Both the position numbers and the translations under genes were made by a program. Below are positions 3,101 to 64,000 of a DNA stretch of 64,000 nt, one piece after another. Positions within the stretch are counted from its first letter, which is position 1, and each line of letters begins with the position of its first letter. Source of the stretch: a virus. Its lineage: Duplodnaviria; Heunggongvirae; Uroviricota; Caudoviricetes. A model generated the notes under the pieces. It was not told where the DNA came from and searched no databases. It was given only the letters and a program-made list of their open reading frames with translations. The stretch lies in IMG/VR virus record IMGVR_UViG_3300033077_000655; one strand, written 5' to 3'.

Positions 3101-3114
3101 GTTAACCAAACCAC

Positions 3115-3143
3115 TTGCATGTAGTCAACACAGTTGCTATAAT
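3115..3143 (+). promoter_or_regulatory. sigma70-like promoter TTGCAT-N17-TATAAT upstream of the 3165 ORF
   Basis: TTGCAT at 3115-3120, a 17-nt spacer, TATAAT at 3138-3143. Confidence 0.45.
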
Positions 3144-3164
3144 GTATTTTTACTGGAGAACTCT

Positions 3165-3428
3165 ATGGACAATCAAAAAACATTCAATGGCGATCAGAAA
3201 ATCAAGCTGATCCAAATCATCAACGAGGGCATGCAAGTCACCCAAGAAATTGAAACACTTACAGGCGGACTCAATGATACCATCAAGGCCATTGCTGAAG
3301 AATTGGAAATCAAACCCGGTGTGCTGAAACGAGCCATCAAGCTGGCACACAAAGCTGAATTTGGTCGAGCCAAACAAGATCACGAATTGCTAGAAACTAT
3401 CCTAGAAACTGTGGGCAAGACTCTTTGA
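3165..3428 (+). CDS. hypothetical protein
   Basis: ORF with an RBS-like sequence upstream; follows the promoter at 3115. Confidence 0.35.
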   Translation: MDNQKTFNGDQKIKLIQIINEGMQVTQEIETLTGGLNDTIKAIAEELEIKPGVLKRAIKLAHKAEFGRAKQDHELLETILETVGKTL

Positions 3429-3733
3429 CACAGACATTTGCCGATTGGCGCAGCAGCGTAGCACAATATGTGCAGGCAGATTTCCGAGCATACCCTCTTA
3501 GATTTTGCTTGGAACTGTTAGGATGGTTTATATCGTTAGGATGTAGTTTGACCTATGCTATTACTGTACCCAATGTTCCGTTTATACTGTTGTATTTTGC
3601 TTTTATCATTGGATGTTTGATCATGGCGTGGTGTGCATACACCCGTGGCAGCTTTGGCATCCTAGGCAACTACTTGATACTAAGTATAATTGACAGCGCA
3701 GGGCTGATAAAACTGTTGTTACAACACAGTTGA
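3425..3733 (+). CDS. hypothetical membrane protein
   Basis: Hydrophobic segments; start overlaps the upstream stop. Confidence 0.35.
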   Translation: MTQTFADWRSSVAQYVQADFRAYPLRFCLELLGWFISLGCSLTYAITVPNVPFILLYFAFIIGCLIMAWCAYTRGSFGILGNYLILSIIDSAGLIKLLLQHS

Positions 3734-30633: not shown

Positions 30634-30742
30634 CATATATTACTAACCGTTACGAATCAGTCAAACTGCCTTGGGAGCCAGGGTTAGTCGAATGGCTGCA
30701 ACAACGTTATCCAATGAGCCTATATCGAATTGTAGAGAAATA

Positions 30743-31207
30743 ATGCCAAAAGTTTATGTATTAGTGGGAGTGCCAGGTTCAGGCAAAAGCACCTGGATAC
30801 GGGATCAAGACTGGGCCCTGGGGCTGACTATAGTTAGTACAGATGCGTTTGTGGAAGACTATGCTAGAGCACAAGGCAAAACTTACAATCAAGTGTTCAA
30901 GGAGTATATGCCTACGGCTGTCAACTTGATGACTGAACAAGTTGTATTTGCACGTGAGCACAATCACAGTATAATTTGGGATCAAACATCAACCACAATC
31001 AAAAGTCGTCTAAAGAAGTTCCGCATGTTGCCCGACTATGAACATGTTGCTGTGGTGTTTCGCACCCCCGAGGCTGAAGAATTGGCTCGTCGATTGTCCG
31101 GCCGAGCAGGAAAGAACATTCCTGATCATGTCATGCATAGCATGATTGCAGGTTGGGAAGAACCTACCGAACAAGAAGGATATGCGGAGATTTGGAATGC
31201 CAGCTGA
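30743..31207 (+). CDS. P-loop kinase (polynucleotide/nucleotide kinase-like)
   Basis: Walker A VLVGVPGSGKST directly after the Met at 30743. The longer upstream ORF start was rejected. Confidence 0.5.
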   Translation: MPKVYVLVGVPGSGKSTWIRDQDWALGLTIVSTDAFVEDYARAQGKTYNQVFKEYMPTAVNLMTEQVVFAREHNHSIIWDQTSTTIKSRLKKFRMLPDYEHVAVVFRTPEAEELARRLSGRAGKNIPDHVMHSMIAGWEEPTEQEGYAEIWNAS

Positions 31208-35977: not shown

Positions 35978-37282
35978 ATGGAATTTTTTATAATATTTCT
36001 TGCAATTCCAATAGGACTCTTGGTAGGAATGTTGCCAGCAATAGGAGACAGCGTGATGATGATCATGCTATATCCATTTGTAGCACATTTAGAATTCAAC
36101 ACTTTGATTGCATTTTATGCTACTATGATCACGTGTGGGCAGTTTAGCTCAAGTGTAGTTGGGCTGTGGCTTGGCCTTGCTGGTGATGTCACAGCCATTC
36201 CAGTTCTTAAAGAACGACGAGAAATCATCAACTCCAACTTGTTATGGACTGCATTGTATAGGACCGGGCAGGCTAGTGCTATTGCCACGTTAGCATCTGT
36301 AGCAATGCTGAGCTTGTTAATTCAGTTTGGTACTGAATTTCGATATTTTCTTCGCACAGATGTATTTTTTGTCATTATAGTTATGGTAGCAGTTTCTGCA
36401 CTGGCTTGGTCTGGAAATAAATTCAAAACAAATTTACTATTGTGCTTGATTGGTCTAGTAGGTAGCTTGATTGGATACAATCAGTTTTTAGGTAAATCTA
36501 TCCTGACCATGGGGGTAGAATTTTTGGTCAATGGCTTGCCTTTCCTTCCTATACTGTTAGGCATGTATGCCATCCCTATGTTGTTTGCTGCCATGGCAGA
36601 TATGTCCAATGCAAGTCCAGTGGATCACACCAAAATTGATACTAGTCAACCTATACAATTAGTACCTGCAGCAGTGATGGCCCGAGGTACTATCATTGGA
36701 TTTTTAACAGGGCTATTGCCGTTGATTGGAGTAACAGTAAGTGCTGCTACTGCACATTTTGTTGAATCCAAAATCAAATCTAGCACAGCACTGACAAGAA
36801 TAAGTTCAGCAGAAGCAGCTGACAATGCGGCTGTGATATCTGTGCTGTTTCCATTATTGGTATTTGGTGTGGCAATACAACCAAGTGAGGCCATAGTGGT
36901 CAATTTGCTGACTGATCGCGGATGGTCAATTAACCAACTCAAAGCAGACACTTATTTGAAAATGGGCGTGGGTATATCAGTTGGAGTGGTGGCATGTCTT
37001 GCATTTTGTGTGCATTATATTGTTCAGATGATCAACTGGTTTACCAGATATTACCAATATGTATTTTATTTTATTTTTGCATTGATAGCATGTGATGTTT
37101 GGTATTTGGGCATGGACTCAGACCGATCAGTCTTTTACATGATTGTTTTTGCAATTTCCACGGTGGTGGGATATTTTTTGTACAAGAAAAAAATTGATCC
37201 AGTTCCAATGATTTTTGTATGGATGCTGGGTCCGTATTTTTGGCCGACTGCATATAGACTTTTACAGCTATATGTTTTATAA
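35978..37282 (+). CDS. polytopic membrane protein, TctA-family-like transporter subunit
   Basis: At least 10 hydrophobic segments; N-terminal GLLVGMLPAIGDS resembles the TctA GxLPGxG signature. Confidence 0.5.
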   Translation: MEFFIIFLAIPIGLLVGMLPAIGDSVMMIMLYPFVAHLEFNTLIAFYATMITCGQFSSSVVGLWLGLAGDVTAIPVLKERREIINSNLLWTALYRTGQASAIATLASVAMLSLLIQFGTEFRYFLRTDVFFVIIVMVAVSALAWSGNKFKTNLLLCLIGLVGSLIGYNQFLGKSILTMGVEFLVNGLPFLPILLGMYAIPMLFAAMADMSNASPVDHTKIDTSQPIQLVPAAVMARGTIIGFLTGLLPLIGVTVSAATAHFVESKIKSSTALTRISSAEAADNAAVISVLFPLLVFGVAIQPSEAIVVNLLTDRGWSINQLKADTYLKMGVGISVGVVACLAFCVHYIVQMINWFTRYYQYVFYFIFALIACDVWYLGMDSDRSVFYMIVFAISTVVGYFLYKKKIDPVPMIFVWMLGPYFWPTAYRLLQLYVL

Positions 37283-40365: not shown

Positions 40366-41256
40366 ATGAACAAAGAACTATTGAAAGAGTTTGTGCTAGC
40401 CAACCCACGGTTGGTTAGTATGAAGCCTGCTGGCGATGGTATCTTTGTGCTCAAGTACAAGAAGGCTGTGTTCTACGACAACTTGTGGAATGACTTTTTG
40501 GAAGAATGTCGCGGTACAATTGTTGACATTGACTTTAATGTGGTGTCACGTCCATTCACAAAGATCTACAACTACGGTGTAGAAGCCAAGGCTCCTGTGC
40601 TGAGTGAAGATACTGTGGTAGAATGCTTTCGTAAGGTCAATGGCTTTATGGTTGCAGTGACTTGGCACGACGGTCGACTGCTGGTATCCACAACTGGATC
40701 CACATCTGGTGACTTTGTAGACATGGCCAACTCCTTCATTGACCGGCGTCGCGGCACCTTTGAACGGTATGTGAGTGGCTTCCCTGACTTGACTTTTATG
40801 TTTGAATGTGTGCATGCAAATGATCCACACATCATTGTAGAAAAGCCAGGACTGTACTTGCTGGGCTATCGTAAAAAGACTTGGGAAAGCCGTAGCGAAA
40901 ACGATGGACTCAGCCTGTATCACCAATATGCATTGTCAGACCACGTGGTAGAATGGAAGCGTTGTACTCTGGGCGAACTAGTACAGGAAGTGAAAACTGT
41001 TCGGCATGAAGGTTTTGTAGTATATGCTAACGACTATACTACATCCTTCAAGATCAAAAGCCCATACTACCTAACTGCAAAGTGGGTGGCACGTAACCCT
41101 CGCACCGACAAACTGATGACACAAGAATTCCGAGAACAATTGGATGAAGAGTATTACCCGCTGCTGGAGCACATCCGTGCTAACATAGAGGCTTATACTG
41201 TTATGGATGAACAAGCACGCCTGGCCTGGGTGCGTGAATATTTGGAGATGGTATGA
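40366..41256 (+). CDS. rnlA: RNA ligase 1 (T4 RnlA-like)
   Basis: LEECRGTIV...SRPFTKIYN aligns with T4 RnlA ALECRGIMF...SRPMEKFFN; KVNGFM matches motif I KxDG; EGFVVY matches motif IV. Confidence 0.7.
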   Translation: MNKELLKEFVLANPRLVSMKPAGDGIFVLKYKKAVFYDNLWNDFLEECRGTIVDIDFNVVSRPFTKIYNYGVEAKAPVLSEDTVVECFRKVNGFMVAVTWHDGRLLVSTTGSTSGDFVDMANSFIDRRRGTFERYVSGFPDLTFMFECVHANDPHIIVEKPGLYLLGYRKKTWESRSENDGLSLYHQYALSDHVVEWKRCTLGELVQEVKTVRHEGFVVYANDYTTSFKIKSPYYLTAKWVARNPRTDKLMTQEFREQLDEEYYPLLEHIRANIEAYTVMDEQARLAWVREYLEMV

Positions 41257-41984: not shown

Positions 41985-42743
41985 ATGTCCGTATTCTTAG
42001 ACTCAGTGATAGAGTTCTACATCACCAATCAATGCAACCTAGCCTGCACCAACTGCAATAGGTTCAATGATCACGATTTCCGTGGTCACTACTATTGGGA
42101 GGATTCTGCACCTGCTGTCACAGCATGGAGTCAACGTATCAATGCATCAATGATAGTGATCATTGGCGGTGAACCCAGCTTGCATCCTGGGTTAGAAACT
42201 TGGGTGATGAATCTTCGCAGATTATGGCCGGACACCACAATCATGATTCAGAGTAATGGCACTAATGCAAAAATAGCAAAAGATCTCGACTCTTACAGCA
42301 AGTACCATGTGGGATGGGGTATAAGTGTACATCGTCCTGAGATGCGACCTGCATTAGAACGACAATGGGGCAACCTTATTGACAACACAGAATTTACCCC
42401 GGCTGCAATTATTCCGCAAGGTGATGCATTTGTTGTTCATCAGAGCAATCCGATAACTGCATTCAAAGCCTGCACCATGCGGCATAGTCACACTGTATTC
42501 AAAGGAAAACTGTACAAGTGTCCTGTGATGGCTGTGCTGCCAGAGTTCCGCACACAGCAATCAGTAATCATGGATACCAGGCAAGAACAGTTGTTGGCTC
42601 AGTATCAACCATTGAGTGCGGACTGTACTGAGCAACAGTTGACGGACTTTGTAGACACAAGAAATCAACCCATTGATCAATGTGAATTTTGCCCTGGTGA
42701 ATTTGATTTCCAGCCAGTGGTATTTCACAAAAGAAAAAAATAA
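41985..42743 (+). CDS. radical SAM protein (single Cx3Cx2C cluster)
   Basis: FYITNQCNLACTNCNRF...IIGGEPSLHPGL. Confidence 0.5.
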   Translation: MSVFLDSVIEFYITNQCNLACTNCNRFNDHDFRGHYYWEDSAPAVTAWSQRINASMIVIIGGEPSLHPGLETWVMNLRRLWPDTTIMIQSNGTNAKIAKDLDSYSKYHVGWGISVHRPEMRPALERQWGNLIDNTEFTPAAIIPQGDAFVVHQSNPITAFKACTMRHSHTVFKGKLYKCPVMAVLPEFRTQQSVIMDTRQEQLLAQYQPLSADCTEQQLTDFVDTRNQPIDQCEFCPGEFDFQPVVFHKRKK

Positions 42744-48688: not shown

Positions 48689-48692
48689 CCAG

Positions 48693-48767
48693 CTGGCGTT
48701 AGTATAATGGATAATACAGGGGATTTCTACTCCCTAAATGGCAGTTCGATTCCGGCCAGTTGCACCA
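48693..48767 (+). pseudogene. degenerate copy of tRNA-Arg (TCT): 5' two-thirds intact, 3' acceptor does not pair
   Basis: Identical to the 50320 tRNA through the anticodon arm (GGGGA-TTTCTAC-TCCCT), then diverges (AATGGCAGTTCGATTCCGGCCAGTTGCACCA). Confidence 0.5.
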
Positions 48768-48783
48768 CTCATAAATAAATTAC

Positions 48784-50310
48784 ATGTACAATGCTATACT
48801 TTTTACAGATCGAACCGACAACATATTTGGATCGGTCACTATTGGGGCATTTAAATGTGCTCATGTTTTAAGAAAACACGGATACTCGTGTTTGGTAGTC
48901 AATCATTATTCAGAATATACACATGAGGATCTGGTTGAACTTGTTGATTTAGCAGTGTCAGATCAAACTATCCTGATTGGGTTTAGTTCTACATATTTAA
49001 AAAATACTCAAATACAAAAACAAGTAGGAGAACCCACACCACCATATCCTGACATTGTTGATGACTCGGTATTCCCGCAAGGCAAAGATTTTGAAAATAA
49101 ATTTTTTGAATATTTGCATAAAACAAATAGCAAACTAAAAATCATAGTAGGTGGTACAAGGGTAACACAACAATATTCTAACAGGAATATTGACTATGCA
49201 TTTATTGGATATAGTGAAATATCTATAGTTAATCTAGCCAATCATCTGACCACCGGCGAACGCTTAGATAAAAGCAGTAAAAATATATACGGTGTGGTCA
49301 TCGTTGATGATCGATTTGCTCCTGCATATAATTTTAATAGTGAAGATATGAGTTGGGAAGCCACAGATATAGTGAATCATCACAGTCTTCCTATAGAAAT
49401 AGGTCGTGGATGTATTTTTAAATGCAAGTTTTGTGCCTTTCCGATGAATGGAAAACAAAATTTAGATTTTGTTAAAACTGCTGATATACTGGAAGCTGAG
49501 TTAAAAAACAACTACGATAGGTATGGTGTTCGACATTATCACATTGTGGATGATACCTTCAATGACCATATTGAAAAATTAGAATCTATACGTCGTGTGG
49601 TTGATCGTTTGAATTTTCAACCGGTATTTTGGGGGTATCACAGATTAGATCTACTGTGTACTAGACCAGAAACAGTAAAAATATTGCACGATATTGGTGT
49701 TAGATCAATGTATTTTGGCATTGAGACTTTGAATGAAAAAGCAGGAAAAATAATTGGTAAAGGATACAACAAATCACGTCAGATTGACATGATTCAAACC
49801 ATTCGCAATCAATATTCTGACATCTCAATGCACGGAAGTTTTATTCTAGGATTGCCCGAGGAGAGTATTGACAGCGTGTGGGAAACTCATAATAGTTTAA
49901 TAAGTCAACAGATTCCATTGCATAGTTGGATGTCAAATGGATTGCACATGTATAACAACGATAAATCTACATACGTCAGTGAGTTTGAAAAAAACTTTAC
50001 CAAATATGGGTATGTTGATATTGGCACTGATAATGAATCTAATTCAAGAAATTGGAAGAACAATTTTACTAACAGTGAAGAAGTCAGAGTATTGGCTGCA
50101 AAATTTACCAACGAATCTCGACGGTTACCAAATTTTATGCTGCCCGGGCATGATGCATTGGCTTTGTCAACATATGGCGTTGATTTTGATATATCACGAT
50201 TTACCCCATATCATCAATTTGATTTCCATGCTGTAGAGCACACTGTTAAACCAAATTTTGATAAAGAATATAAAAAACAATTGTTGAATCTTATTCAACA
50301 TTCTAAATAA
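48784..50310 (+). CDS. B12-binding-domain radical SAM protein (paralog 1)
   Basis: GRGCIFKCKFCAF (Cx3Cx2C); N-terminal Rossmann-like domain; paralog of 50508..52154. Confidence 0.7.
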   Translation: MYNAILFTDRTDNIFGSVTIGAFKCAHVLRKHGYSCLVVNHYSEYTHEDLVELVDLAVSDQTILIGFSSTYLKNTQIQKQVGEPTPPYPDIVDDSVFPQGKDFENKFFEYLHKTNSKLKIIVGGTRVTQQYSNRNIDYAFIGYSEISIVNLANHLTTGERLDKSSKNIYGVVIVDDRFAPAYNFNSEDMSWEATDIVNHHSLPIEIGRGCIFKCKFCAFPMNGKQNLDFVKTADILEAELKNNYDRYGVRHYHIVDDTFNDHIEKLESIRRVVDRLNFQPVFWGYHRLDLLCTRPETVKILHDIGVRSMYFGIETLNEKAGKIIGKGYNKSRQIDMIQTIRNQYSDISMHGSFILGLPEESIDSVWETHNSLISQQIPLHSWMSNGLHMYNNDKSTYVSEFEKNFTKYGYVDIGTDNESNSRNWKNNFTNSEEVRVLAAKFTNESRRLPNFMLPGHDALALSTYGVDFDISRFTPYHQFDFHAVEHTVKPNFDKEYKKQLLNLIQHSK

Positions 50311-50507: not shown

Positions 50508-52154
50508 ATGTTTAATAATAAAAAACCTAATGTTATTTTAATTACAGATTCTACTGATATAATTTCTTTAAACATTCTACTTGGGCCATTTAAAGTAGCA
50601 CATGTTCTTAAAGAGCATGGAATAGAAGTTGCAATGATACATCATGCATCAGCATTGTCATTTAAAGAAATAACTACTATTCTCAAAGAGATAATATCTG
50701 ATCAAACTTTGTTGGTGGGTATAAACAATTTCTATTATTCTTCCATTGAACTTAATAAAGATAATGGCAGTGATGGCATGACATTAAAAGAAATTGACCC
50801 AGGTAGTTTTTTACCTCATGGAAAAAGCAAAAATATTGAGTTAAAAACACTGATTAAATCATTGAATCCCAAAACCAAAATAGTGCTTGGCGGTGTGACT
50901 GCATTAGATACCAAGTACAACAAAGATTTTGATTATCTTGTGTTAGGATACGCCGAAACTGCAATATTGGATCTGGTGGATCATCTTAGGTCATCGTCTC
51001 CTATAGAAAAAAGTTATAAAAGTATCTATGGGCCAATAGTGCTGACAGACAAGGTAGCGTCTAGATATGATTTTTCATCATCCCATATGCGGTATGATCC
51101 AGACTGGTCAATACTGCCTGGATCAACATTTCATCTAGAATTAGGTCGTGGATGCATTTTTAAATGTGCATTTTGCGCTTATCCTTTCAATGGAAAAAAG
51201 AAAACTGATTATATTAGATCAAAAGAATCTATTCAGGCTGAGATGATAGACAATTACAACAGATTTGGTGTCACACGTTATTTGATGGGTGACGATACGT
51301 TTAACGACAACGTTGATAAATGCCGAATGATTTATGAAATATCCCAAGAACTTCCATTTAAATTAGAGTACTGGGCGTATTTGAGATTAGACCTGCTGAC
51401 GGCACATCCTGAAACAATAGATTATTTGTTTGACAGCGGCTTAAAAGCGGCGTTTTTTGGTATTGAAACTCTGAACCCCAAGACTGCATCTATAATAGGC
51501 AAAGGTGGCAATCGAGATAAAATGTTTAAAACTATAGCTGATATTAAATCTAAGTGGGGTGATTTAGTTTCGTTAGCCGCTGGGTTTATTTATGGATTAC
51601 CCGAAGAAGATTTAGATAGCCTACAACGCACAACTGATTTTTTGATCAGTGACCAAAACAAACTAGATCAGTGGCTAGTTGAAGCTTTAAACATACGCCC
51701 TACCGTTGATTATGATAATAGCTTTATCAGCGATATAGAAAAAAATTATGAAAAATATGGTTATAGTAAAATAGACAACCACACTCGTCCAGGTGGGTCC
51801 AATATAGGCACTGATCGCCGACGACATGCTATAGTCTGGAAGAATAAACACACAGACTATTACTCTGTTTTAAACATTACCGAAGCACTGAATGCTAGAA
51901 TAAAACCACACTTGAAAATTCCCGGCGATGCGGCTCTCCTGTTGAGTGGGCTAGGCATAGATTTAGACCAACTATTAAACAAACAACATGACCAAGTGCC
52001 GTGGAATAAACTAGATCAACTACATTTAAAAAAAGTTTTTGAGTATAAAAAACTCTTAGCTAAGAATTTAAATTTTGATATTAATCTCATTGACATGAAA
52101 ATTTTGCATCACAAAACGTACGGTAATTATCTCAAAGCAATGTTTGAAAAATAA
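50508..52154 (+). CDS. B12-binding-domain radical SAM protein (paralog 2)
   Basis: GRGCIFKCAFCAY; domain order as in 48784..50310. Confidence 0.7.
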   Translation: MFNNKKPNVILITDSTDIISLNILLGPFKVAHVLKEHGIEVAMIHHASALSFKEITTILKEIISDQTLLVGINNFYYSSIELNKDNGSDGMTLKEIDPGSFLPHGKSKNIELKTLIKSLNPKTKIVLGGVTALDTKYNKDFDYLVLGYAETAILDLVDHLRSSSPIEKSYKSIYGPIVLTDKVASRYDFSSSHMRYDPDWSILPGSTFHLELGRGCIFKCAFCAYPFNGKKKTDYIRSKESIQAEMIDNYNRFGVTRYLMGDDTFNDNVDKCRMIYEISQELPFKLEYWAYLRLDLLTAHPETIDYLFDSGLKAAFFGIETLNPKTASIIGKGGNRDKMFKTIADIKSKWGDLVSLAAGFIYGLPEEDLDSLQRTTDFLISDQNKLDQWLVEALNIRPTVDYDNSFISDIEKNYEKYGYSKIDNHTRPGGSNIGTDRRRHAIVWKNKHTDYYSVLNITEALNARIKPHLKIPGDAALLLSGLGIDLDQLLNKQHDQVPWNKLDQLHLKKVFEYKKLLAKNLNFDINLIDMKILHHKTYGNYLKAMFEK

Positions 52155-55480: not shown

Positions 55481-55585
55481 ATGCCAAGTCCACGTAGAGC
55501 AAGTCAAATCCTCAAAGGTAAAAAACCACCAAAACCCAAGACCATGAAAGCCATGGCCAAACGTGTGGTACGAAAGAAAAAGTAA
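55481..55585 (+). CDS. small basic protein (34 aa)
   Basis: RBS aaggagatagtt-ATG; sequence MPSPRRASQILKGKKPPKPKTMKAMAKRVVRKKK; its stop overlaps the next start (TAATG). Confidence 0.3.
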   Translation: MPSPRRASQILKGKKPPKPKTMKAMAKRVVRKKK

Positions 55586-56814
55586 TGAGCAAACTCCTAT
55601 TAGAAATGGGTGATCACTGCGTAAGTGATTTTATCAAGAATGATAGTGAAGGCCTAGGCCGTAAAAAATACAGTCTAGACCTATACCAAGATGATCGGTT
55701 TGGCGCTGTTCGTCTTCACGGTGTTGCACCAGCAGATACCATGTGGGGTCAATATTGGTATCGCAGCGGTATCAACGCCAGCATGACTAAAGAATTGCAA
55801 GGCATTGTTGCAGAAGTAACTTCAAGGGTAAAGACCAAAGCCGGTGATATTTGGCTGGACATTGCATGCAATGACGGTACACTATTAAAAAGTGTGCCCG
55901 ATAACATGATCAAAATTGGTATTGATCCAGCCGACGACAGCTTCCGTAGTGAAAGCACCCGGGTTGCGCATGAAGTTGTTCAAGAATATTTCAGCTATGA
56001 TGCCTGGCAGAAAACAGGGTATGGGCATGCCAAAGCCAAGATCATTACTTGCATTGCAATGTTCTATGACTTAGATGATCCAGTTCCATTCATACAGGAT
56101 TTGTACCGTGTGCTGGATGACAATGGAACGTTGGTATTACAGATGAGCCATACCCCATTGATGGTGAAGCAGCTGGCATTTGACAATATCTGCCACGAAC
56201 ACGTTTACTACTATGATCTCAAGAGTATCACTAGACTATTTGCTGAAAATGGATTCAGGGTAGTTGATTGCAGTCTCAATGACACCAACGGTGGCAGCTT
56301 CAGAGTATATCTTCAGAAGGATGTGGCAGAAGTTTCTAGCTTTGCCACAGCACCCTTGCGTGATGTATGCAACTTTAGAGTCAATAGCATTCTTGCATAT
56401 GAAAGAGTAGAGAACGATATCACTGATCCCAAAACATGGAAATTGTTCGGCGATCGACTTGTTGTGCTAAAGGAACAAGTTGTTTCTTTTGTTCATCAGG
56501 CTGTGAAACAAGGAAAAACAGTTTATGGTTATGGAGCAAGCACCAAGGGCAATACACTGCTGCAATACTTTGGGCTGGACCATAATTATATCACTGCTAT
56601 TGCAGAACGCAGCCCTTACAAATTTGGCATGAAGACCATTGGTACCAACATTCCAATCATCAGTGAAGAAGAAATGCGTGTGGCCAAGCCAGACTACATG
56701 TTGGTATTGCCTTGGCACTTTATCAACGAATTTGAACAGCGTGAACAAGATTACTTGAAATCTGGTGGTACATTCATTGTTCCTTGTCCTGCATTTAGAT
56801 TGGTCACTGCATAG
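55585..56814 (+). CDS. SAM-dependent C-methyltransferase (NDP-hexose C-methyltransferase, TylCIII-like)
   Basis: WLDIACNDGTLL (motif I), IAMFYDLDDP, and a C-terminal YGYGASTKGNTLLQYF block typical of the C-methyltransferase C-terminal domain. Confidence 0.6.
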   Translation: MSKLLLEMGDHCVSDFIKNDSEGLGRKKYSLDLYQDDRFGAVRLHGVAPADTMWGQYWYRSGINASMTKELQGIVAEVTSRVKTKAGDIWLDIACNDGTLLKSVPDNMIKIGIDPADDSFRSESTRVAHEVVQEYFSYDAWQKTGYGHAKAKIITCIAMFYDLDDPVPFIQDLYRVLDDNGTLVLQMSHTPLMVKQLAFDNICHEHVYYYDLKSITRLFAENGFRVVDCSLNDTNGGSFRVYLQKDVAEVSSFATAPLRDVCNFRVNSILAYERVENDITDPKTWKLFGDRLVVLKEQVVSFVHQAVKQGKTVYGYGASTKGNTLLQYFGLDHNYITAIAERSPYKFGMKTIGTNIPIISEEEMRVAKPDYMLVLPWHFINEFEQREQDYLKSGGTFIVPCPAFRLVTA

Positions 56815-56817
56815 TCT

Positions 56818-57771
56818 ATGAACAAGATAGTTTTTTTCAATTTCTTCCATAATGGCGATTGTTTTGTCACTAAAGAATATGTGAGAGATATAATTTCAAA
56901 GTTGCCTGAGATTGAATTTGAATATGCACACAACAATCATGACAACATAATATGTGATTTAGATTGCAAACATGTGCCAATAACCAGTATGCCAGATCGA
57001 TTTGATCTAACATATTATGGCATGCCTGATCAATCAGCGCCTATTCCGTATCACATGCCCATGTTGGTTGATACATTGACTGACACAGTTTACATCAATA
57101 CATGGGTTGGGAGTTTTCAGGATCTTCCCAAATGGGGCAGGCACGCCAATTTTACAACTTTTCCACATATGTGGAAGGAAATATATGACTACTTGAAAAT
57201 TCCAATGGTTGGTGACTATACCTGCTATCAGCCTGAGATACGATTTGACCAATGTAATATATCACATGCTCAAAAATATCTCTCGAACATAGGTCATGCA
57301 CCATTAGTTGTGTTCTGTAATAATAATGTTTTGAGCAGACAGAGTGATATGGGTGATATGGAGAAGATCATTGACAATATCTCTTCACAGTTTCCCGATC
57401 ACCAATTTTTGGTCACAGACAGAGTCAATGTACACAAATCAAATGTGAAATATTCTGAAGATGTGCTCAACGGGATTGTGGGAAACTTAAATCAAATTTC
57501 ATACATAACACATGCTGCCAAACTGATTGTTGGAAAGAACAGCGGACCATTCTCATATGCTCACACTAGATCAAATATGACCGATCCACACAAGACCTTC
57601 ATGTGTTTTAGCAAACAGATAGCTGAGTGTTTGATGGGCGGTGGCGAATACTTGGCAAATAGTTATTTTAGCAACAGTACAGATGATACAGTAGCCAGCG
57701 ATATTATCTCAAAATTAATCTCAAATCCAATCCGTAATCCTGTAGCCAAACCTACGCAATACATATCATGA
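56818..57771 (+). CDS. hypothetical protein
   Basis: ORF within the sugar-modification gene run. Confidence 0.4.
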   Translation: MNKIVFFNFFHNGDCFVTKEYVRDIISKLPEIEFEYAHNNHDNIICDLDCKHVPITSMPDRFDLTYYGMPDQSAPIPYHMPMLVDTLTDTVYINTWVGSFQDLPKWGRHANFTTFPHMWKEIYDYLKIPMVGDYTCYQPEIRFDQCNISHAQKYLSNIGHAPLVVFCNNNVLSRQSDMGDMEKIIDNISSQFPDHQFLVTDRVNVHKSNVKYSEDVLNGIVGNLNQISYITHAAKLIVGKNSGPFSYAHTRSNMTDPHKTFMCFSKQIAECLMGGGEYLANSYFSNSTDDTVASDIISKLISNPIRNPVAKPTQYIS

Positions 57772-58430
57772 AAATTATTTTGCAAAATTGTTATGCAGAC
57801 AATTATCTTTCTCTAGGAAATTTAACTTGGCACAAAAATAAAGTTGCATATGCAGCTAAACATGGATACGACACTAGATTAAACATCTACCAGAATGAAG
57901 CTGATACCCCACATCCACTATCATTTTATGGATTTAAAAAGATATATCATCTACAGAAAATTTTCATTGAGGACAATCCCGATTGGGTTTGGGTAACAGG
58001 TTGTGATTCTTTAATCACAAACTTTAATATAAAATTAGAATCAATCATTGATGAAAATTTTCATTTCATTATTGCAAAAGATGTGAATGGAATTAACATG
58101 GATAGTTTTCTAGTTAAAAATTCTCATGAGGGTAGATCTTTCATAGACCTCATTGCGTCAAGCTATGAAAAATATAAAGATCATTCTTTAGCCGAGCAAG
58201 GATGTGTGATTGATAATCTAAAAGAATTTAACAATATTATAAAAATAGTTCATCAAAAAACTTTTAATTCATATAATTATGAAATTATGTATAATCAAGG
58301 AATTATTCACCATCCTCCTCCATGGGAAGGGATGTGGGAACATGGGGATTTATTAATTCATTGGCCTGCAATGCAATTGTATAGAAGATTGCAATTGGCT
58401 GAAGAATATTCTCAACACGTCATATTATGA
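57768..58430 (+). CDS. hypothetical protein
   Basis: ORF with ATGA overlap. Confidence 0.4.
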   Translation: MKIILQNCYADNYLSLGNLTWHKNKVAYAAKHGYDTRLNIYQNEADTPHPLSFYGFKKIYHLQKIFIEDNPDWVWVTGCDSLITNFNIKLESIIDENFHFIIAKDVNGINMDSFLVKNSHEGRSFIDLIASSYEKYKDHSLAEQGCVIDNLKEFNNIIKIVHQKTFNSYNYEIMYNQGIIHHPPPWEGMWEHGDLLIHWPAMQLYRRLQLAEEYSQHVIL

Positions 58431-59251
58431 AAATCTTTATCACAGGATCAACTGGATTTATAGGCCTAAACTTAATTAGATTCTACAAAAAAACAAACAA
58501 TATCACTGAGTACAAACGTGGCGAATGTCTTTCGACTGCATTAAATAATTGTTGTCCAGATTTAATTTTTCATTGTGCAGGTGAGATTTATAAAGATGAT
58601 CTTATGATATCAACTAACGTCCTTATGACTAAAGATATTCTTGAGTACGTTAAATTAAATCCAAAAACTAAACTGATATACACAGGGTCAAGCAGTGAAT
58701 ATGGCAAAGTTCCTAGAGCAAGTGTAGAAACTGATAGGATAAATCCTGTAGATATGTATCAAGCAACCAAAGGCGCTGCTACACTATTGTGTCAAGGTTA
58801 TGCCAGACATTATGAGTTAGACATAAAGATTGCAAGACCATATAGTGTATACGGAAGATTTGAAAGAAATCACAGGCTATTTCCTACTATGTGGAGATCA
58901 TTTTTTAAAGATGAGCCGATGACACTTTGGCAAGGATATCATGATTTTATTTACATAGATGACTTTATTCGCGGCTTAGATATTATTGCTACCTCTGGAA
59001 AGAATCCTGGTGATATCATTAATTTAGGTTCAGGAATACAATCACCCAACTTTGGCGAAAACGGTGTCTATGATATCTTTAAAGAGTTGACCAATCGTCG
59101 AGGCAATGTTAAAATAATACACCATCTAAGTAAGAATTTTGAATCGGAAGTATGGCAATGCGATACTGCATATTCCAAAAGTGCATATGCGTTTGAAGCA
59201 GAATACACATTGAGAGATGGCATCAAAGAATTTTTAGAATACACAAAATAA
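58427..59251 (+). CDS. NAD-dependent epimerase/dehydratase (SDR family)
   Basis: MKIFITGSTGFIGLNL (GxxGxxG) and YQATK (YxxxK). Confidence 0.7.
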   Translation: MKIFITGSTGFIGLNLIRFYKKTNNITEYKRGECLSTALNNCCPDLIFHCAGEIYKDDLMISTNVLMTKDILEYVKLNPKTKLIYTGSSSEYGKVPRASVETDRINPVDMYQATKGAATLLCQGYARHYELDIKIARPYSVYGRFERNHRLFPTMWRSFFKDEPMTLWQGYHDFIYIDDFIRGLDIIATSGKNPGDIINLGSGIQSPNFGENGVYDIFKELTNRRGNVKIIHHLSKNFESEVWQCDTAYSKSAYAFEAEYTLRDGIKEFLEYTK

Positions 59252-59261
59252 GGAAAATAAC

Positions 59262-59834
59262 ATGACAAAATTTGGACAAAACGAAGCAGTGAAAATTGAT
59301 TGGGCACATGCAGGCCTCTTAGAGGGACTGGTATCATCTAGTAAACCTAAAAAAATTCTAGAACTCGGAGTTGGCGGTGGACGTAGTTTAGAAAGTATTC
59401 TGAAAGGGATAGAATACAATAGTCAACCTTATGAATATACATTAGTTGATAATTGGGGAGACTGGGGAGGTGTTATGCCGCCCGAGGTAACAGAGTTATA
59501 TCAAGAGAAAGTCCATAATATAATTACAAGCGACGAAAAAGATTTTGTGTTTTCTTGTCAAGAAAAATTTGATTTTATTATGAGCGATGCTGATCACTAT
59601 CGAGCAGATCAGTGGTTTGAATACGTATACAATAACTTATTAAACGATAATGGTATATTGATTTATCACGACGTGAATATGGATGACCATTGGCATGCTG
59701 GTAATTTCTTCAATTTAAGAAATATATACAAAGCTGTTAAAACTAAAAAAATTAGTCATCGGTTGTTTAATGTAAGCTCTTTACCAGAAGAACAATGCGA
59801 ACGCGGACTGTTAGTTATTTTTAAGAATAGCTGA
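59262..59834 (+). CDS. class I SAM methyltransferase (O-methyltransferase-like)
   Basis: ILELGVGGGRSL motif I; DADH. Confidence 0.5.
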   Translation: MTKFGQNEAVKIDWAHAGLLEGLVSSSKPKKILELGVGGGRSLESILKGIEYNSQPYEYTLVDNWGDWGGVMPPEVTELYQEKVHNIITSDEKDFVFSCQEKFDFIMSDADHYRADQWFEYVYNNLLNDNGILIYHDVNMDDHWHAGNFFNLRNIYKAVKTKKISHRLFNVSSLPEEQCERGLLVIFKNS

Positions 59835-59875
59835 TATGAGAAAAGTTTGTTCTTTAATGAAACAATAATGAAAGA

Positions 59876-60490
59876 TTGATCATGCATCAAATTGAAAAAA
59901 GAATCGTAGATATTACATATCAAGAGAAGTTATGTCATCTAAGTAGTTGTCTTAGTGCCTGGCCTATAATTCATGAAATTTACAATATCAAAAAAGACGA
60001 TGAAGTATTCATCCTTAGCAATGGTCATGCTGGTCTAGCACTATATTGTGAACTTGAATTTAGATATGGAATTGATCCTGTTATGCTTCTTCATAAGCAT
60101 GGAATTCACCCAGGAAAAGATTTAGAGAACAAACTATATTGCTCTACAGGAAGTTTAGGGTCCGGCCTTCCAATTGCGGTAGGCCATGCATTGGCTAATA
60201 AAGATAAATCCGTTTACTGTATAATTAGTGATGGCGAATGCGCCGAAGGCAGTATTTGGGAATCTCTTGCATTTATTAACAAACAAAAACTTAATAATAT
60301 TCATGTTTATGCAAATATCAATGGTATGGGTGCATATGAGTACATTGACGTTGAGAATCTGTCAGATAGACTTCGAGCGTTCTTGCCCACAATTACTTTA
60401 AGAATAAGTGTGCCAATTGATTTGGGATTCACAAAAGGTCTTGAATCTCATTACCACATAATTAAACCTGAAGAGTACAATACATTATGA
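59876..60490 (+). CDS. transketolase N-terminal (TPP-binding) subunit
   Basis: LSNGHAGLALY, GSLGSGLPIAVGHALA and ISDGECAEGS motifs. Confidence 0.7.
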   Translation: MIMHQIEKRIVDITYQEKLCHLSSCLSAWPIIHEIYNIKKDDEVFILSNGHAGLALYCELEFRYGIDPVMLLHKHGIHPGKDLENKLYCSTGSLGSGLPIAVGHALANKDKSVYCIISDGECAEGSIWESLAFINKQKLNNIHVYANINGMGAYEYIDVENLSDRLRAFLPTITLRISVPIDLGFTKGLESHYHIIKPEEYNTL

Positions 60491-60972
60491 GAAAAACATG
60501 CATGAATCTTCTGTCGCAAAAGATGACAGAAAACAAAGATGTGATTTTGCTTACCGCAGATTTAGGTTTTGGATTGCTAGACGTAGTGCGTGATGCACAT
60601 CCAGACAGATTCTATAATGTTGGTGCAGCAGAACAATTACTAATTGGTGCTGGTGTAGGACTTGCCGAACAAGGCAAGATTCCTGTTTGTTATAGCATGA
60701 GTAGTTTTGTTTTATATCGTCCATTTGAATTCTTACGCAACTATCTTAATGCAGAAAACATTCCAGTTAAACTTATTGGAAGTGGAAGAGATAAAGATTA
60801 CTCGCATGATGGACTATCACATTGGGCACATGATGCAGATGAAGTTCTGGCATGTTTACCAAACATTAAAATATACAAGCCACAATCTTTAGTAGAGTTA
60901 ACAGATCAATTTGACGACTTTATAAACAATAAAAGTCCATCGTTTCTAAGCCTAACTAGAAAAGTTTTTTAA
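60487..60972 (+). CDS. transketolase C-terminal (pyrimidine-binding) subunit
   Basis: GAGVGLAEQGKIPV...HDGLSHWAHDADEVLACLPNIKIYKP. Confidence 0.65.
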   Translation: MRKTCMNLLSQKMTENKDVILLTADLGFGLLDVVRDAHPDRFYNVGAAEQLLIGAGVGLAEQGKIPVCYSMSSFVLYRPFEFLRNYLNAENIPVKLIGSGRDKDYSHDGLSHWAHDADEVLACLPNIKIYKPQSLVELTDQFDDFINNKSPSFLSLTRKVF

Positions 60973-60978
60973 GAATCC

Positions 60979-61368
60979 ATGGAAAAACTATCAATTAAAA
61001 TTCCAGTCTCTCTTGGTGAACTTGTCGATAAAATCACTATTCTCAGAATCAAGCAAGCGTGTATGACCGACGCAGAAAAACTTTTCAATGTAACGCATGA
61101 GTATAATATGCTTGTTGCTATTCCAGAATACGTAGCAGTCAAAGACACAATCGCAGAACATGAAGAAGCTTTGCATAAAGTAAATCAGCGTCTTTGGTTT
61201 TACGAAGACGACATTCGAGACTTTGATAAGATGCAAAGCCCAAACACCACTTCATACATGCAAGTCGCAAGAGGCATTCATATCACAAATGATGAACGAA
61301 GCAGAATCAAAAAAGCAATCAACATTATGTGTAATTCAGAACTGGTTGAAGAAAAATCTTATGAGTAA
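60979..61368 (+). CDS. hypothetical protein
   Basis: ORF. Confidence 0.35.
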   Translation: MEKLSIKIPVSLGELVDKITILRIKQACMTDAEKLFNVTHEYNMLVAIPEYVAVKDTIAEHEEALHKVNQRLWFYEDDIRDFDKMQSPNTTSYMQVARGIHITNDERSRIKKAINIMCNSELVEEKSYE

Positions 61369-61418
61369 TGTCGACATATTATAAATATATGTAACATAAA
61401 TTAATACAAGGATTTAAA

Positions 61419-61988
61419 ATGACTTCACCCATACTTTTTACTGATCATATATTGGCATTTTTTAAAAATAATTTGCTCAATCTCAATTCAAACTATTTAG
61501 AGATTGGAGTTTACTTTGGCATAAGCATATCAGAATTGGCTAATGAATTCCCAAACAAGAAAATTTTTGCCATTGATCCTTTCATTGAAGATGGAAATAC
61601 ATCTTGGCACAGCGGGATCACACATACTGAACAATTGAACACACAACGTACACATGCCCTTAAATTAGCCGAATCTAAAACTAATCTTAAACTTTTTGAG
61701 ATGACCAGCCAAGAATTTTATAATACCTTGACTGAAGAACAAATTCAACTGATGAATGTAGGCGCTGTCTTTATTGACGGAGACCATCATTATGAACATG
61801 CTACCATTGATTACAAATTGGCTTTGGCATTAATTGGTAAAAAGCAAGGTCTTATTGTATTTGATGATGATAACATAGATTCCGTTAGAAGAGCTATGGA
61901 TGAGTTTGAACTAGCAGCTCGAGATATAATTACAGAAAAGATTCCCCTTCCTAGAACTTCTACTGCTTATAGATTAAACTCACTCTAA
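61419..61988 (+). CDS. class I SAM methyltransferase-like (CmcI/O-MT family 3-like)
   Basis: LEIGVYFGISI...IFAIDPF...FIDGDHHYEH. Confidence 0.5.
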   Translation: MTSPILFTDHILAFFKNNLLNLNSNYLEIGVYFGISISELANEFPNKKIFAIDPFIEDGNTSWHSGITHTEQLNTQRTHALKLAESKTNLKLFEMTSQEFYNTLTEEQIQLMNVGAVFIDGDHHYEHATIDYKLALALIGKKQGLIVFDDDNIDSVRRAMDEFELAARDIITEKIPLPRTSTAYRLNSL

Positions 61989-62085
61989 ACTTCCTATCTA
62001 TGGTGTGTGTTCAGATTATATAGAAACTATATTGTCTAAATAAATATATGAATAGTCGTAATCCCTTCAAAACAAAGGAATCCAA

Positions 62086-62366
62086 GACTCGGGGGCAGTG
62101 CCCGAATGGTCCACCAGAAGCATAATCGATTGGCTCAGAGCCAGTTGAGACATAAGAAACATGATTGTGCTTTTGATGGGCCATACACAGGATCGATTGG
62201 GTTAGATAGTGGCGACGGCGACTCGGTAGGCGATGACCGTTAATCAAGCGAAACCTATAAATGCCAACGACAGCGTTTATTCCTTAGCTGCCTAAACTCA
62301 GCTTAGGGTAGTTATACCTCGTAACAGAAAATAACAGAAGCCCGCTTCGGCGGGCTTTCTTTTGAC
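62086..62366 (+). ncRNA. ssrA: candidate tmRNA (ssrA)-like RNA with tag reading frame ANDSVYSLAA-stop; architecture unresolved
   Basis: Sits in a 380-bp non-coding gap. GCC AAC GAC AGC GTT TAT TCC TTA GCT GCC TAA at 62263-62295, preceded by CTATAAAT. Upstream ...GGTCCACCA at 62112-62120. Ends in a strong terminator. Confidence 0.5.
62338..62364 (+). terminator. intrinsic terminator
   Basis: AAGCCCGC-TTCG-GCGGGCTT followed by TCTTTTG. Confidence 0.8.
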
Positions 62367-62393
62367 TGTTATTTTTGATCACTATATACTAGC

Positions 62394-62636
62394 ATGGGTA
62401 AGCAAACTGAATACTTTGAACGCATTGGATATCAACCCAAATACTGGATTGGTGATCGAGTGTTCGGACACTGGAACAAGATACCATTTGTTGGCACTGT
62501 GGGCAACGACACAGTGATTGACAACACCGGGCCCAGGATCTCAATACACTTGGATCTTCCAATCAAACATGAAAACAAAATACACAACATCATCATAGTC
62601 AAGCATAAGGATATTACCAAATTGAAAGAGTTTTGA
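62394..62636 (+). CDS. hypothetical protein
   Basis: ORF after the terminator. Confidence 0.35.
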   Translation: MGKQTEYFERIGYQPKYWIGDRVFGHWNKIPFVGTVGNDTVIDNTGPRISIHLDLPIKHENKIHNIIIVKHKDITKLKEF

Positions 62637-62694
62637 CTTGACTTTGACCACATGATGCTGTATACTGTATAAATCATCAACACCGGAGAATAAC

Positions 62695-62928
62695 ATGGCA
62701 AGAATCACTAGTCAAGACGCAGCAGCAATGATTGGCAACCGTTACGAATTGGTGCTAATTGCATCACGTCGTGCTCGAGAACTATCCCGCGGGGACATGC
62801 CAAAAGTAACCAAAGTTTCTGGACATTTGGTCACTGCTTTGCGTGAAATTGAACAGGGCTTTGTGGATCGTAGTTGGCTGTACAAACCACAAGATGTGGT
62901 GTCAAAAAGCCATCACAGGAAATATTGA
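62695..62928 (+). CDS. rpoZ: RNA polymerase omega subunit (RpoZ) homologue
   Basis: MARITSQDAAAMIGNRYELVLIASRRARELS aligns with E. coli omega [31 protein letters not shown]; RBS ggagaataac-ATG. Confidence 0.7.
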   Translation: MARITSQDAAAMIGNRYELVLIASRRARELSRGDMPKVTKVSGHLVTALREIEQGFVDRSWLYKPQDVVSKSHHRKY

Positions 62929-62964
62929 TAAAGCGTGTGCTCATGAAAAAGGATAAATATCTGC

Positions 62965-64000
62965 ATGAGCACTAATCAATTCCGCCGGTACCTTGACCTC
63001 TTGAATGAGGCAGATCTAGTACCACCCAACACCAATGTGGCACTCCCGAGTTCGGGCACATTCAGCAATGATGATGCCATTGCCAACTTGAATCAGCAAA
63101 TGTCCGGAGGCACAGTGCCGCGCTGTGCAGTTTGTGGCACACCACAAAGTAAACATCAGCAGTTAAAACACCAGTTTGTGGCCGGTGGTGCAGCAGATCG
63201 ACCTGATCCAGTGCCGCAACCACAAACAGCAGGTGGTAGCGACGTTGGTCGTATCCGACAACTACAAGCAGAGCTCAAAGCTGCTGGTGCAAATTTAGGT
63301 GCAACAGGGCCAAATCATGATGGTATAGATGGTGACATAGGTCCGTTGACCCGTGCTGCCATGACTCAGTATCCAAACATTTCTGCCAAATATAAAGATC
63401 TTGGTGTTGAGCAAGGAGCCGCACCCGCAGGGACAACTGGTAATATTGCACAATTAAATACTGCACTTACTGCCATTGAAGGCATACTGGCCAAGTACAA
63501 AGTCAAACTCAGTGAAGGCCGCGAATACTCAACTCCTGCAAGTCAGATGAAACAGTGGAGTTTACTGTTGGAGGCAGGGCCAACTGCCCAACAACGTCAA
63601 GAGTATCTGGATGCTATACAACGTAATCAACTTCCAGATCCTGTAACACCCGCAGCTCAGCCAACAGCACAAAGGACAATGCCACGCTTGTCAGGAGCCA
63701 ATCCGACACCAGCGCAGCAAGCAGTACAAAGAGCAGGAATAGGGATGCCAAGGTTGGCAGGGGCTGGGCCTTATGCCGGACCGGCTGCTGCTGCTGCCAA
63801 AACAGGTGCATCAAAAGTTGCAGCTGGTGTAGCAGGTAAAACCCTAGGCAGACTAGTACCCGGAGTTGGACTGGCGTTAAGTGGGTATGATGCCATTGAT
63901 CGAACTAAACAAGGCGACTATGTAGGTGCTGGTATTTCTGGACTAGCTGGTATAGCTTCTTTGTTTCCAGGTCTGGGCACATGGATTTCAGCAGGCCTGT
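62965..64000 (+). CDS. peptidoglycan-binding-domain protein (structural or lysis-associated), partial at window end
   Basis: DGDIGPLTRAAM (PG_binding_1-like); Ala/Gly/Pro-rich C-terminal region. The ORF runs off the window. Confidence 0.5.
   Translation, partial: MSTNQFRRYLDLLNEADLVPPNTNVALPSSGTFSNDDAIANLNQQMSGGTVPRCAVCGTPQSKHQQLKHQFVAGGAADRPDPVPQPQTAGGSDVGRIRQLQAELKAAGANLGATGPNHDGIDGDIGPLTRAAMTQYPNISAKYKDLGVEQGAAPAGTTGNIAQLNTALTAIEGILAKYKVKLSEGREYSTPASQMKQWSLLLEAGPTAQQRQEYLDAIQRNQLPDPVTPAAQPTAQRTMPRLSGANPTPAQQAVQRAGIGMPRLAGAGPYAGPAAAAAKTGASKVAAGVAGKTLGRLVPGVGLALSGYDAIDRTKQGDYVGAGISGLAGIASLFPGLGTWISAGL

Follow-up and report, generated by a model that had tools for sequence, protein, structure and literature searches.

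A predicted circularly permuted tmRNA gene beside the tRNA array of a large uncultured phage

The stretch of DNA considered here (the window) comprises 64,000 nucleotides (nt) of the IMG/VR virus record IMGVR_UViG_3300033077_000655, assigned to the Caudoviricetes, and very probably contains, at positions 62054-62360 of its (+) strand, a functional circularly permuted ssrA gene, the gene for transfer-messenger RNA (tmRNA), of a large uncultured phage. As judged from comparison with related sequences, the gene appears to possess the sequence and structural hallmarks of a two-piece tmRNA, and its helices and tag peptide are under selection. The gap between credible open reading frames (ORFs) in which it lies extends from 61989 to 62393, between a methyltransferase gene that ends at 61988 and an ORF of 80 amino acids (aa) that starts at 62394, and the mechanical list of ORFs places within it only short overlapping frames: one of 45 aa runs on the (+) strand and one of 78 aa on the opposite strand. 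An earlier interpretation made from the letters alone, hereafter the sequence-only reading, had described the region as an ORF-free gap of 380 base pairs (bp); nothing longer than these overlapping frames occurs in it, and its length is ~405 bp.

Gene call and architecture of the two-piece tmRNA

A permuted tmRNA with the tag ANDSVYSLAA* is called by ARAGORN at 62024-62386, and the covariance models of Rfam point to the same locus. The model RF01850 (beta_tmRNA) is matched over its full length (1-331) with 125 bits, against a gathering threshold of 84 (E 1.2e-37), and the merged model RF04321 (tmRNA_permuted), also over its full length, with 120.8 bits against a gathering threshold of 47 (E 4.8e-23). 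The stretch aligned to RF01850 includes the loop AGGCGAYG of the pre-tag hairpin and the residues UAAAUGCCAACGA that surround the resume codon, as well as both the 3' hairpin and the terminator. A permissive Rfam scan of the tmRNA locus (E<=1) returned no other credible family and no riboswitch. The minimum free energy (MFE) of the 307-nt precursor, -99.1 kcal/mol, lies 3.5 standard deviations below that of dinucleotide shuffles (z = -3.5), and the MFE fold independently yields the acceptor stem together with the helix of the intervening segment, the T arm, helix P5 and the terminator. The tmRNA signal in the gap is far beyond chance. Moreover, contigs 100% identical to the window come from two independent sequencing runs (SRR31615961, SRR15557812), which excludes an artefact of assembly; a third run contains a variant of 97% identity. 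The permuted phage tmRNA proposed by the sequence-only reading is strongly borne out by the two checks it had named, ARAGORN with the option -m and the Infernal tmRNA models, and the tRNA-like domain and pseudoknot on which it had made the proposal depend are present as a complete domain and a covarying 3' pseudoknot; the reduced tmRNA that it had offered as an alternative does not agree with a full-featured gene.

The order of the gene is permuted: an acceptor piece ending in CCA comes first, followed by a 61-nt intervening segment and then by the coding piece which bears the tag (all coordinates in this section refer to the (+) strand). The acceptor piece, i.e., the 3' half of the tRNA-like domain, occupies 62054-62116, position 62054 being the start of the RF04321 alignment and not a mapped 5' end. 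It opens with the 5' strands of helices P2b (AGUCG, 62054-62058) and P2a (AAUCCAA, 62079-62085), continues with a T arm made of a 5-bp stem and a 7-nt loop (UCGGG-GGCAGUG-CCCGA, 62089-62105), and closes with the 3' strand of the acceptor stem (AUGGUCC, 62106-62112) and the discriminator A followed by an encoded CCA (ACCA, 62113-62116). The tRNA-like 3' end which the sequence-only reading had recognized in GAATGGTCCACCA is found at 62104-62116. The acceptor stem of 7 bp, GGGCCAU/AUGGUCC, consists of the pairs G1-C, G2-C, G3·U, C-G, C-G, A-U and U-A, the alanine identity pair G3·U70 corresponding to G62180·U62110.

The intervening segment (62117-62177) is predicted to be removed on maturation. 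Its ends, AAGCAUAAUC and GAUUGUGCUU, pair with each other and lengthen the acceptor stem, an inner hairpin UGGCU-CAG-AGCCA occupies its interior, and a conserved leader UGAU abuts the mature 5' GGG. The terminal duplex amounts to -13.6 kcal/mol in the window, and over the family the terminal helix averages -10.8 kcal/mol, versus -4.0 kcal/mol for shuffles (n=85); in the related loci L009 and L186, compensatory changes affect both the terminal helix and the inner hairpin. No nested ORF of the kind found in some relatives occurs in these 61 nt, and the intervening segment of the window is a structured spacer only.

The coding piece (62178 to ~62360), with a predicted size of ~180 nt, begins with the 5' strand of the acceptor stem (GGGCCAU, 62178-62184), followed by the D-loop analogue ACACAGGAUCGA (62185-62196) and by the 3' strands of P2a (UUGGGUU, 62197-62203, pairing with 62079-62085) and P2b (CGACU, 62219-62223, pairing with 62054-62058). 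A pre-tag hairpin P3, CGGU-AGGCGAUG-ACCG (62224-62239), stands at the place of the pseudoknot PK1 of standard tmRNA. It is followed by an A-rich linker which ends in ..CCUAUAAAU at 62262, directly 5' of the resume codon; the upstream residues CTATAAAT cited in the sequence-only reading are present at 62255-62262. The tag frame called by ARAGORN at 62263-62295 runs from the resume codon GCC (Ala) through ANDSVYSLAA to the stop codon UAA, and is the very frame (GCC AAC GAC AGC GTT TAT TCC TTA GCT GCC TAA) from which the earlier proposal had been drawn. In the manner of tmRNA tags, it begins with neither an AUG nor a Shine-Dalgarno sequence and terminates in a hydrophobic degron.

The stop codon is contained in the loop CCUAAACU of helix P5 (CCUUAGCUG / CAGCUUAGG, 62282-62307), which is indicated by covariation and by the MFE fold. 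The core of P5 is formed by 62286-62290 with 62299-62303 (the equivalent in L009 being GGCAG/CUGCC), and its two outermost pairs compete with stem 1 of the 3' pseudoknot PK2 (62306-62335). In PK2, stem 1 associates GGGU (62306-62309) with ACCU (62316-62319), as seen from covariation, and stem 2 associates GUUAU (62311-62315) with AUAAC (62331-62335), as seen from duplex energies; CGUAACAGAAA forms a conserved loop. A terminator scan identified the hairpin GAAGCCCGC-UUCG-GCGGGCUUU followed by CUUUUG (62337-62358), with a 9-bp GC-rich stem and a T-rich tail. This hairpin, the last one modelled in RF01850, is kept in relatives and probably marks the 3' end of the coding piece; it is the strong terminator announced by the sequence-only reading, located 41 nt and not 45 nt past the stop codon. 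The T tract of the terminator overlaps a promoter-like site of the next gene (TTGACT-17-TATACT, 10 of 12 consensus bases; 62337-62390), an arrangement kept in the loci L002 and L008.

Covariation, selection and relatives

Covariation was assessed in an alignment of 11 sequences of the length class that includes the gene of the window. Standard pairs fill 85.1% of the alignment cells, versus 33-53% when the partners are slid by 1-3 columns, and both sides have changed in 25 of the 37 pairs; none of 500 shuffles reached the observed values. For P2a, whose pairing was not a selection criterion in the extraction of relatives, 88% of the cells are paired and all seven pairs have changed on both sides. 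The corresponding values are 82% and 3 of 4 pairs for P3, 77% and 3 of 5 pairs for the core of P5, and 91% and 1 of 3 pairs for stem 1 of PK2. The duplex energy of PK2 stem 2 is -8.7 kcal/mol, versus -4.8 kcal/mol for shuffles (58 genes), and the sequences of this stem diverge strongly between genes, e.g., GGUAGGUU/AACCUACC, GAGGGUUUA/UAAACCCUC and GGUAAUUGA/UCAGUUACC. Both stems of the predicted 3' pseudoknot thus have the support of covariation.

Selection also bears on the peptide. The tag of L009 is identical to that of the window even though five of the ten codons differ (5 synonymous, 0 nonsynonymous changes), which indicates that the peptide itself is selected (purifying selection). Among the tags of the phage family, AND occurs at the start in 68 of 76 and LAA at the end in 60 of 76.

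Megablast and blastn searches with the locus against 50,697 phage records (INPHARED) yielded no DNA match, and relatives were therefore sought by means of the neighbouring RpoZ-like protein and of a T-loop pattern. The RpoZ-like protein led to 15 related viral contigs; in nine of these, a permuted tmRNA occupies the corresponding position, flanked by the tRNA array and the rpoZ-like gene, and the tags include ANDSVYSLAA, ANDEQFALAA, ANDELFALAA, ANDEKFLMAA and ANDSQYLVAANA. The T-loop pattern search of viral contigs allowed at least 89 unique phage tmRNA genes to be extracted. The nearest relatives detected by blastn are all viral (L186, 79% over 307 nt), and the motif CCUYGUAAC occurs in 55 of 119 viral candidates and in none of the 120 bacterial candidates, the latter being the matches listed; together with AAGAC before the T arm, it is essentially viral-only in the sample. 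Viral-only nearest relatives and phage-specific motifs argue for a lineage evolving within phages and not for a recent capture from a host. A scan of viral contigs for the exact motif CCTATAAATGCCAACGAC gave a single locus, L001, which was discarded as a chance match in coding-like sequence devoid of any tmRNA.

Two relatives differ in what follows the tmRNA. In L005, a tRNA with the amber-reading anticodon CTA, labelled 'Pyl' by ARAGORN, occurs at 2185-2261, just downstream of the tmRNA, whose Rfam match ends at 2146. In L258 (Logan SRR27639464), a variant 97% identical to the window over the aligned positions 62258-63393, an insertion of 2.7 kb separates the tmRNA terminator from the 80-aa gene and consists of two genes, of 455 and 382 aa, with no Pfam hit on record.

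With respect to bacteria, two-piece tmRNAs were reportedly described from the Alphaproteobacteria by Keiler, Shapiro and Williams in 2000, and from the Betaproteobacteria by Sharkady and Williams in 2004. The T-loop of the window gene, GGCAGUG, possesses neither U54 nor U55 nor the usual UUCGA. The idea that it represents a phage novelty had to be abandoned, since it is widespread in alphaproteobacterial permuted tmRNAs: the pattern GGGGCAGTGCC-N7-TCCACCA was found in at least 120 species-representative bacterial genomes, mostly of Alphaproteobacteria (e.g., Acetobacteraceae, Rhodospirillales), and ARAGORN calls a permuted tmRNA in 97 of the 120 bacterial T-loop matches listed. Another candidate, a covariation between the T-loop and the D-loop (GGCAGUG with GGAUCGA versus UUCGA with GUUUCGAC), was likewise rejected, the loci L212, L215, L152 and L199 combining GGCAGUG with GUUUCGAC. 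The bacterial alpha-type genes share the architecture of the 3' pseudoknot, with a loop GCAACAGAA, and the 40 most frequent bacterial tags listed for genes with the GGCAGUG T-loop all begin with ANDN.

The window gene accordingly resembles the alphaproteobacterial two-piece tmRNA (RF01849, alpha_tmRNA) in gene order, in the GGCAGUG T-loop and in the 3' pseudoknot with its NCAACAGAA loop, but differs from it by a 10-residue tag of gamma/beta-like style, where the alpha genes have ANDN..., and by being located in a phage and not in a cell. It resembles the betaproteobacterial two-piece tmRNA (RF01850) in that this model scores best and is matched in full length, but its T-loop is GGCAGUG where the beta consensus reads UUCGAUU, and, being phage-borne, it is not to be counted in the bacterial lineage. 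The best score of the beta model is attributed to the pre-tag hairpin and the 10-residue tag, which look beta/gamma in style; the relative L008 scores best on RF01849. From its sequence, the gene would thus combine an alpha-type tRNA-like domain and pseudoknot with a pre-tag hairpin and a 10-residue tag of a more beta/gamma style, and, because its tag begins with ANDS and not with ANDN, it is classified in a lineage of phage genes whose tRNA-like domain is of the alpha type, outside the bacterial alpha lineage.

Genomic surroundings and nested reading frames

Upstream of the tmRNA, ARAGORN detects 36 tRNA genes on the (+) strand between 32920 and 55444, including three tRNA-Met(CAT), a tRNA-Ile(TAT) and duplicates for several amino acids; one further weak tRNA match by Rfam, at 48692-48764, is not called by ARAGORN. 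A set of RNA-repair genes accompanies this array on the same strand, namely an Rnl2-type RNA ligase (27324-28337; PF09414 and the PHA02142 OB domain), an AAA_33 kinase-like protein (30671-31207) and an Rnl1-like ligase (40366-41256; 'RNA ligase and tail fiber attachment catalyst', phrog_562). Genes for four radical-SAM proteins occur at 16459-18465, 41985-42743, 48784-50310 and 50508-52154 (+); B12-binding domains are present in two of the proteins, and two of the genes, located within the tRNA array, might from their context specify RNA or tRNA modification enzymes. A full-length TctA subunit of a tripartite tricarboxylate transporter (136 bits) is encoded at 35978-37282 (+). Directly upstream of the tmRNA, a sugar/methyl-transfer block of low GC content (0.33-0.39 versus ~0.42 elsewhere) extends over 55585-61988 (+) and comprises a C-methyltransferase, a glycosyltransferase of family 34, a NAD epimerase/dehydratase, a split transketolase, a DUF6165 protein and two Methyltransf_24 proteins. 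The family B DNA polymerase relates the phage to Sinorhizobium phage Phosso (48.6%), to Agrobacterium phage Atu_ph07 (46.4%) and to the Rak2-like jumbo phages (~42%).

Downstream, ~330 bp past the tmRNA terminator and after the 80-aa ORF, a homologue of the RNA polymerase omega subunit (Rpb6/RpoZ) of 77 aa is encoded at 62695-62928 (+). A phage-encoded omega subunit seems unusual: tblastn against INPHARED found no genuine phage record with a homologue and only bacterial-type rpoZ at ~48% identity. In metagenomes, the homologues amount to 720 clusters, the best 120 of which are 79-96% identical, occur on contigs of up to 348 kb, and all fall within the phage clade without pointing to a host. 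One homologue, P0029 of L003 (261,673 nt), is labelled 'Haliscomenobacter sp.' in its NCBI record; this probably reflects the binning of a phage contig with a bacterial metagenome-assembled genome, and could be a weak hint at a host.

Other members of the family differ from the window in the content of their intervening segments. Small ORFs occupy segments of 88-382 nt; they are preceded by an AAGGA-like Shine-Dalgarno sequence, open 10-15 nt downstream of the CCA and use as their stop the conserved UGA in the UGAU|GGG leader. Such ORFs were observed in L203, L194, L251/L002 (L002 ~3086-3454), L172, L217, L197/L184, L228/L216/L227, L214, L010 and L161. The ORF of L203 (69 aa) matches DUF2061 (75.7 bits) and that of L194 (51 aa) matches DUF6356 (39.3 bits); the others correspond either to conserved hydrophobic small membrane peptides of 23-42 aa or to proteins of 104-122 aa without family. 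On sequence grounds, the nested ORFs of some relatives appear to be real small protein genes. As regards the content of intervening sequences, the paper on the tmRNA database names a tRNA gene and a repeat element, and no protein genes (PMC11915505), and no description of protein genes nested in permuted tmRNA genes was found in the literature searched. In this respect, they represent a more original lead than the tmRNA of the window itself.

Putative function and place among phage tmRNAs

According to the mechanism proposed, a single precursor would be transcribed, from which tRNA-processing enzymes of the host would excise the 61-nt segment, RNase P acting at the 5' GGG and 3' trimming proceeding to the encoded CCA, as suggested by the maturation of other permuted tmRNAs (PMC11915505). 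The resulting acceptor RNA of ~63 nt and coding RNA of ~180 nt would stay joined by the acceptor stem and P2, a pairing that covariation shows. The host alanyl-tRNA synthetase would presumably charge the acceptor stem with its G3·U70 pair, and host SmpB and EF-Tu would bring the RNA to ribosomes that have stalled because their mRNA is broken or has no stop codon. Translation would then resume at GCC and append A-ANDSVYSLAA, a sequence suggestive of proteolysis of the SspB/ClpXP type. Including the tmRNA-borne alanine, the tag compares with AANDENYALAA of E. coli, in which AAND..Y forms the SspB-binding module and the C-terminal ALAA/LAA the ClpX module (PMC8512704); the resemblance to the degron ANDENYALAA pointed out by the sequence-only reading holds for AAND..Y and for the terminal LAA, the ALAA module being replaced by SLAA. 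The existence of two stable RNAs, alanine charging, SmpB binding and trans-translation activity are accordingly all predictions, drawn from the sequence and by analogy, for which the conserved helix of the precursor and the UGAU leader offer indirect support. From the genomic context, the phage would likely benefit by keeping ribosomes available and recycling amino acids at a time when host and phage mRNAs are degraded, and this benefit would combine with that of its 36 tRNAs and RNA-repair enzymes.

Several observations weigh against the identification of the locus as a functional tmRNA gene. No second stem that would turn the pre-tag hairpin into PK1, by pairing of the AGGCGAUG loop with the downstream linker or the resume codon, is conserved among the relatives. 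In its middle part, helix P2 of the window copy is imperfect, the covariance model flagging non-canonical pairs, and P2b, which pairs in the window, is only 53% paired in the alignment, partly because of register shifts. As the extraction of relatives required pairing of the acceptor stem and T-stem as well as G3·U70, the 100% conservation of these features is not independent evidence; compensatory changes do occur in both stems used as criteria, e.g., GGGCCUG/CAGGUCC and GGGGAUG/CAUCUCC in the acceptor stem. No convincing sigma-70 promoter was found upstream of the tmRNA in the window, the homologous position retaining ~7 of 12 consensus bases, where the relatives L008 and L009 have TTGACA-17-TACAAT; read-through or a modified polymerase may therefore be needed to transcribe the window copy. 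Finally, neither the window nor any of the fetched loci yielded an smpB by tblastn with three SmpB sequences, so that the function would depend on compatibility with the SmpB of the host. A scan of viral contigs for SmpB returned 80 E. coli-type prophage-edge copies of smpB, and nothing on this clade.

This dependence on the host is shared by an alternative according to which the phage tmRNA acts mainly as a decoy or competitor, titrating host SmpB or replacing the host tmRNA and thereby altering trans-translation or the outcome of tagging to the advantage of the phage, in place of a simple gain in rescue capacity. Lacking a detected smpB of its own in the window and fetched loci, the phage would have to let its RNA compete for that of the host, and the tmRNA of mycobacteriophage DS6A, composed of the tRNA-like domain only, has been discussed as an inhibitor which may titrate SmpB (PMC4131195; PMC11915505). 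The gene of the window, however, is complete and not cut down to its tRNA-like domain, and the purifying selection visible in the comparison with L009, together with the canonical degron ending kept by most tags of the family, fits real tagging better than mere titration, which makes the decoy function improbable. Still less credible, and indeed very improbable, is the view of a passively carried copy or relic of a host ssrA, derived from imprecise excision or attachment-site homology and without any role in lytic growth. It is true that tmRNA genes are frequent integration sites, that the ends of prophages often adjoin ssrA/smpB (PMC11915505), that the SmpB scan of viral contigs gave mostly prophage-edge copies, and that Buchholz et al. 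(2022, PMC9004378) mention imprecise excision among the possible origins of phage ssrA. The gene nevertheless has its full length and every functional element; throughout a diverse clade of phages it is conserved with compensatory changes and keeps a fixed place beside the tRNA array; its closest relatives, with the CCUYGUAAC motif absent from the listed bacterial candidates, are all viral, no integrase family appears among the ~40 window proteins scanned, and among cultured phages the jumbo phages Phosso and Atu_ph07 come nearest.

The genomic context also lends itself to the assumption that the phage tmRNA primarily serves counter-defence, by rescuing ribosomes stalled by anticodon nucleases, mRNA interferases or collateral RNases of the host. 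The RNA ligase and polynucleotide kinase of phage T4 repair tRNA cut by the host nuclease PrrC, and the tmRNA of the window is co-located with 36 tRNAs, the Rnl1-like ligase, the Rnl2-type RNA ligase and the AAA_33 kinase. The same genes would equally fit a general upkeep of translation, and a primary role in counter-defence is considered rather unlikely. A wider proposal, held just as tentatively, is that the lineage represents more than a borrowed rescue RNA, either as part of a translation-repair island directed against RNA-cleaving defences or through a precursor doubling as an expression slot. If the latter were true, one transcript would yield both a tmRNA and a mini-mRNA; since the 61-nt segment of the window is only a structured spacer, this would apply to the family and not to the present copy. 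A functional two-piece tmRNA remains the preferred interpretation of the window gene.

Listings of phage tmRNAs go back to at least 2014, with mycobacteriophages and Bacillus phage G (PMC4131195), and the tmRNA database of 2025 contains 79 phage sequences (PMC11915505). Buchholz et al. (2022, PMC9004378) described a two-piece tmRNA in phage Melnitz and, in a set of 18,146 phage genomes, counted 53 unique two-piece tmRNAs, of which 50 were marine or aquatic. The gene of the window resembles those of the OM43 phage Melnitz and of the pelagimyophages (PMC9004378) in being a circularly permuted ssrA that has a tag frame, shows alpha-type features and belongs to a large tailed phage of water-type samples. 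The clade differs, Melnitz being T4-like and the phage of the window belonging to an Atu_ph07/Rak2-like jumbo lineage; moreover, a glutamine riboswitch is reported in the ssrA of Melnitz, whereas none was detected in the 3' domain of the window gene (Rfam, E<=1). Huge phages carrying tmRNA and SmpB are also on record (Al-Shayeb et al. 2020, PMC7162821), and the Sinorhizobium jumbo phage AP-J-162, of the Atu_ph07 group, possesses one tmRNA, Atu_ph07 itself being listed with 0 (PMC11242549). These phages share with the present one a large genome and a tmRNA associated with many tRNAs and other translation genes, and both AP-J-162 and the nearest relatives of the window's DNA polymerase fall into one broad Atu_ph07-like group. 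The huge phages are reported with SmpB, in contrast to the 64-kb window, in which none was found, and both papers (PMC7162821, PMC11242549) are silent on whether the genes are permuted. Compared with the one-piece genes of the mycobacteriophage Bxz1 group and Bacillus phage G, and with the tRNA-like-domain-only gene of DS6A (PMC4131195), all of them phage-borne ssrA, the gene of the window is both permuted and complete.

As two-piece tmRNAs of phages have been published and standard tools find the gene, the window gene itself opens no new question and is a solid but ordinary find. For a clade of jumbo phages that is abundant but uncultured, it provides the annotation of a stable RNA gene, well delimited and validated by comparison, and at least 89 related sequences are now available to study the evolution of phage-specific tmRNAs. 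It also adds to the picture of large aquatic or environmental phages that carry a ribosome-rescue RNA beside near-complete sets of tRNAs and RNA-repair enzymes.

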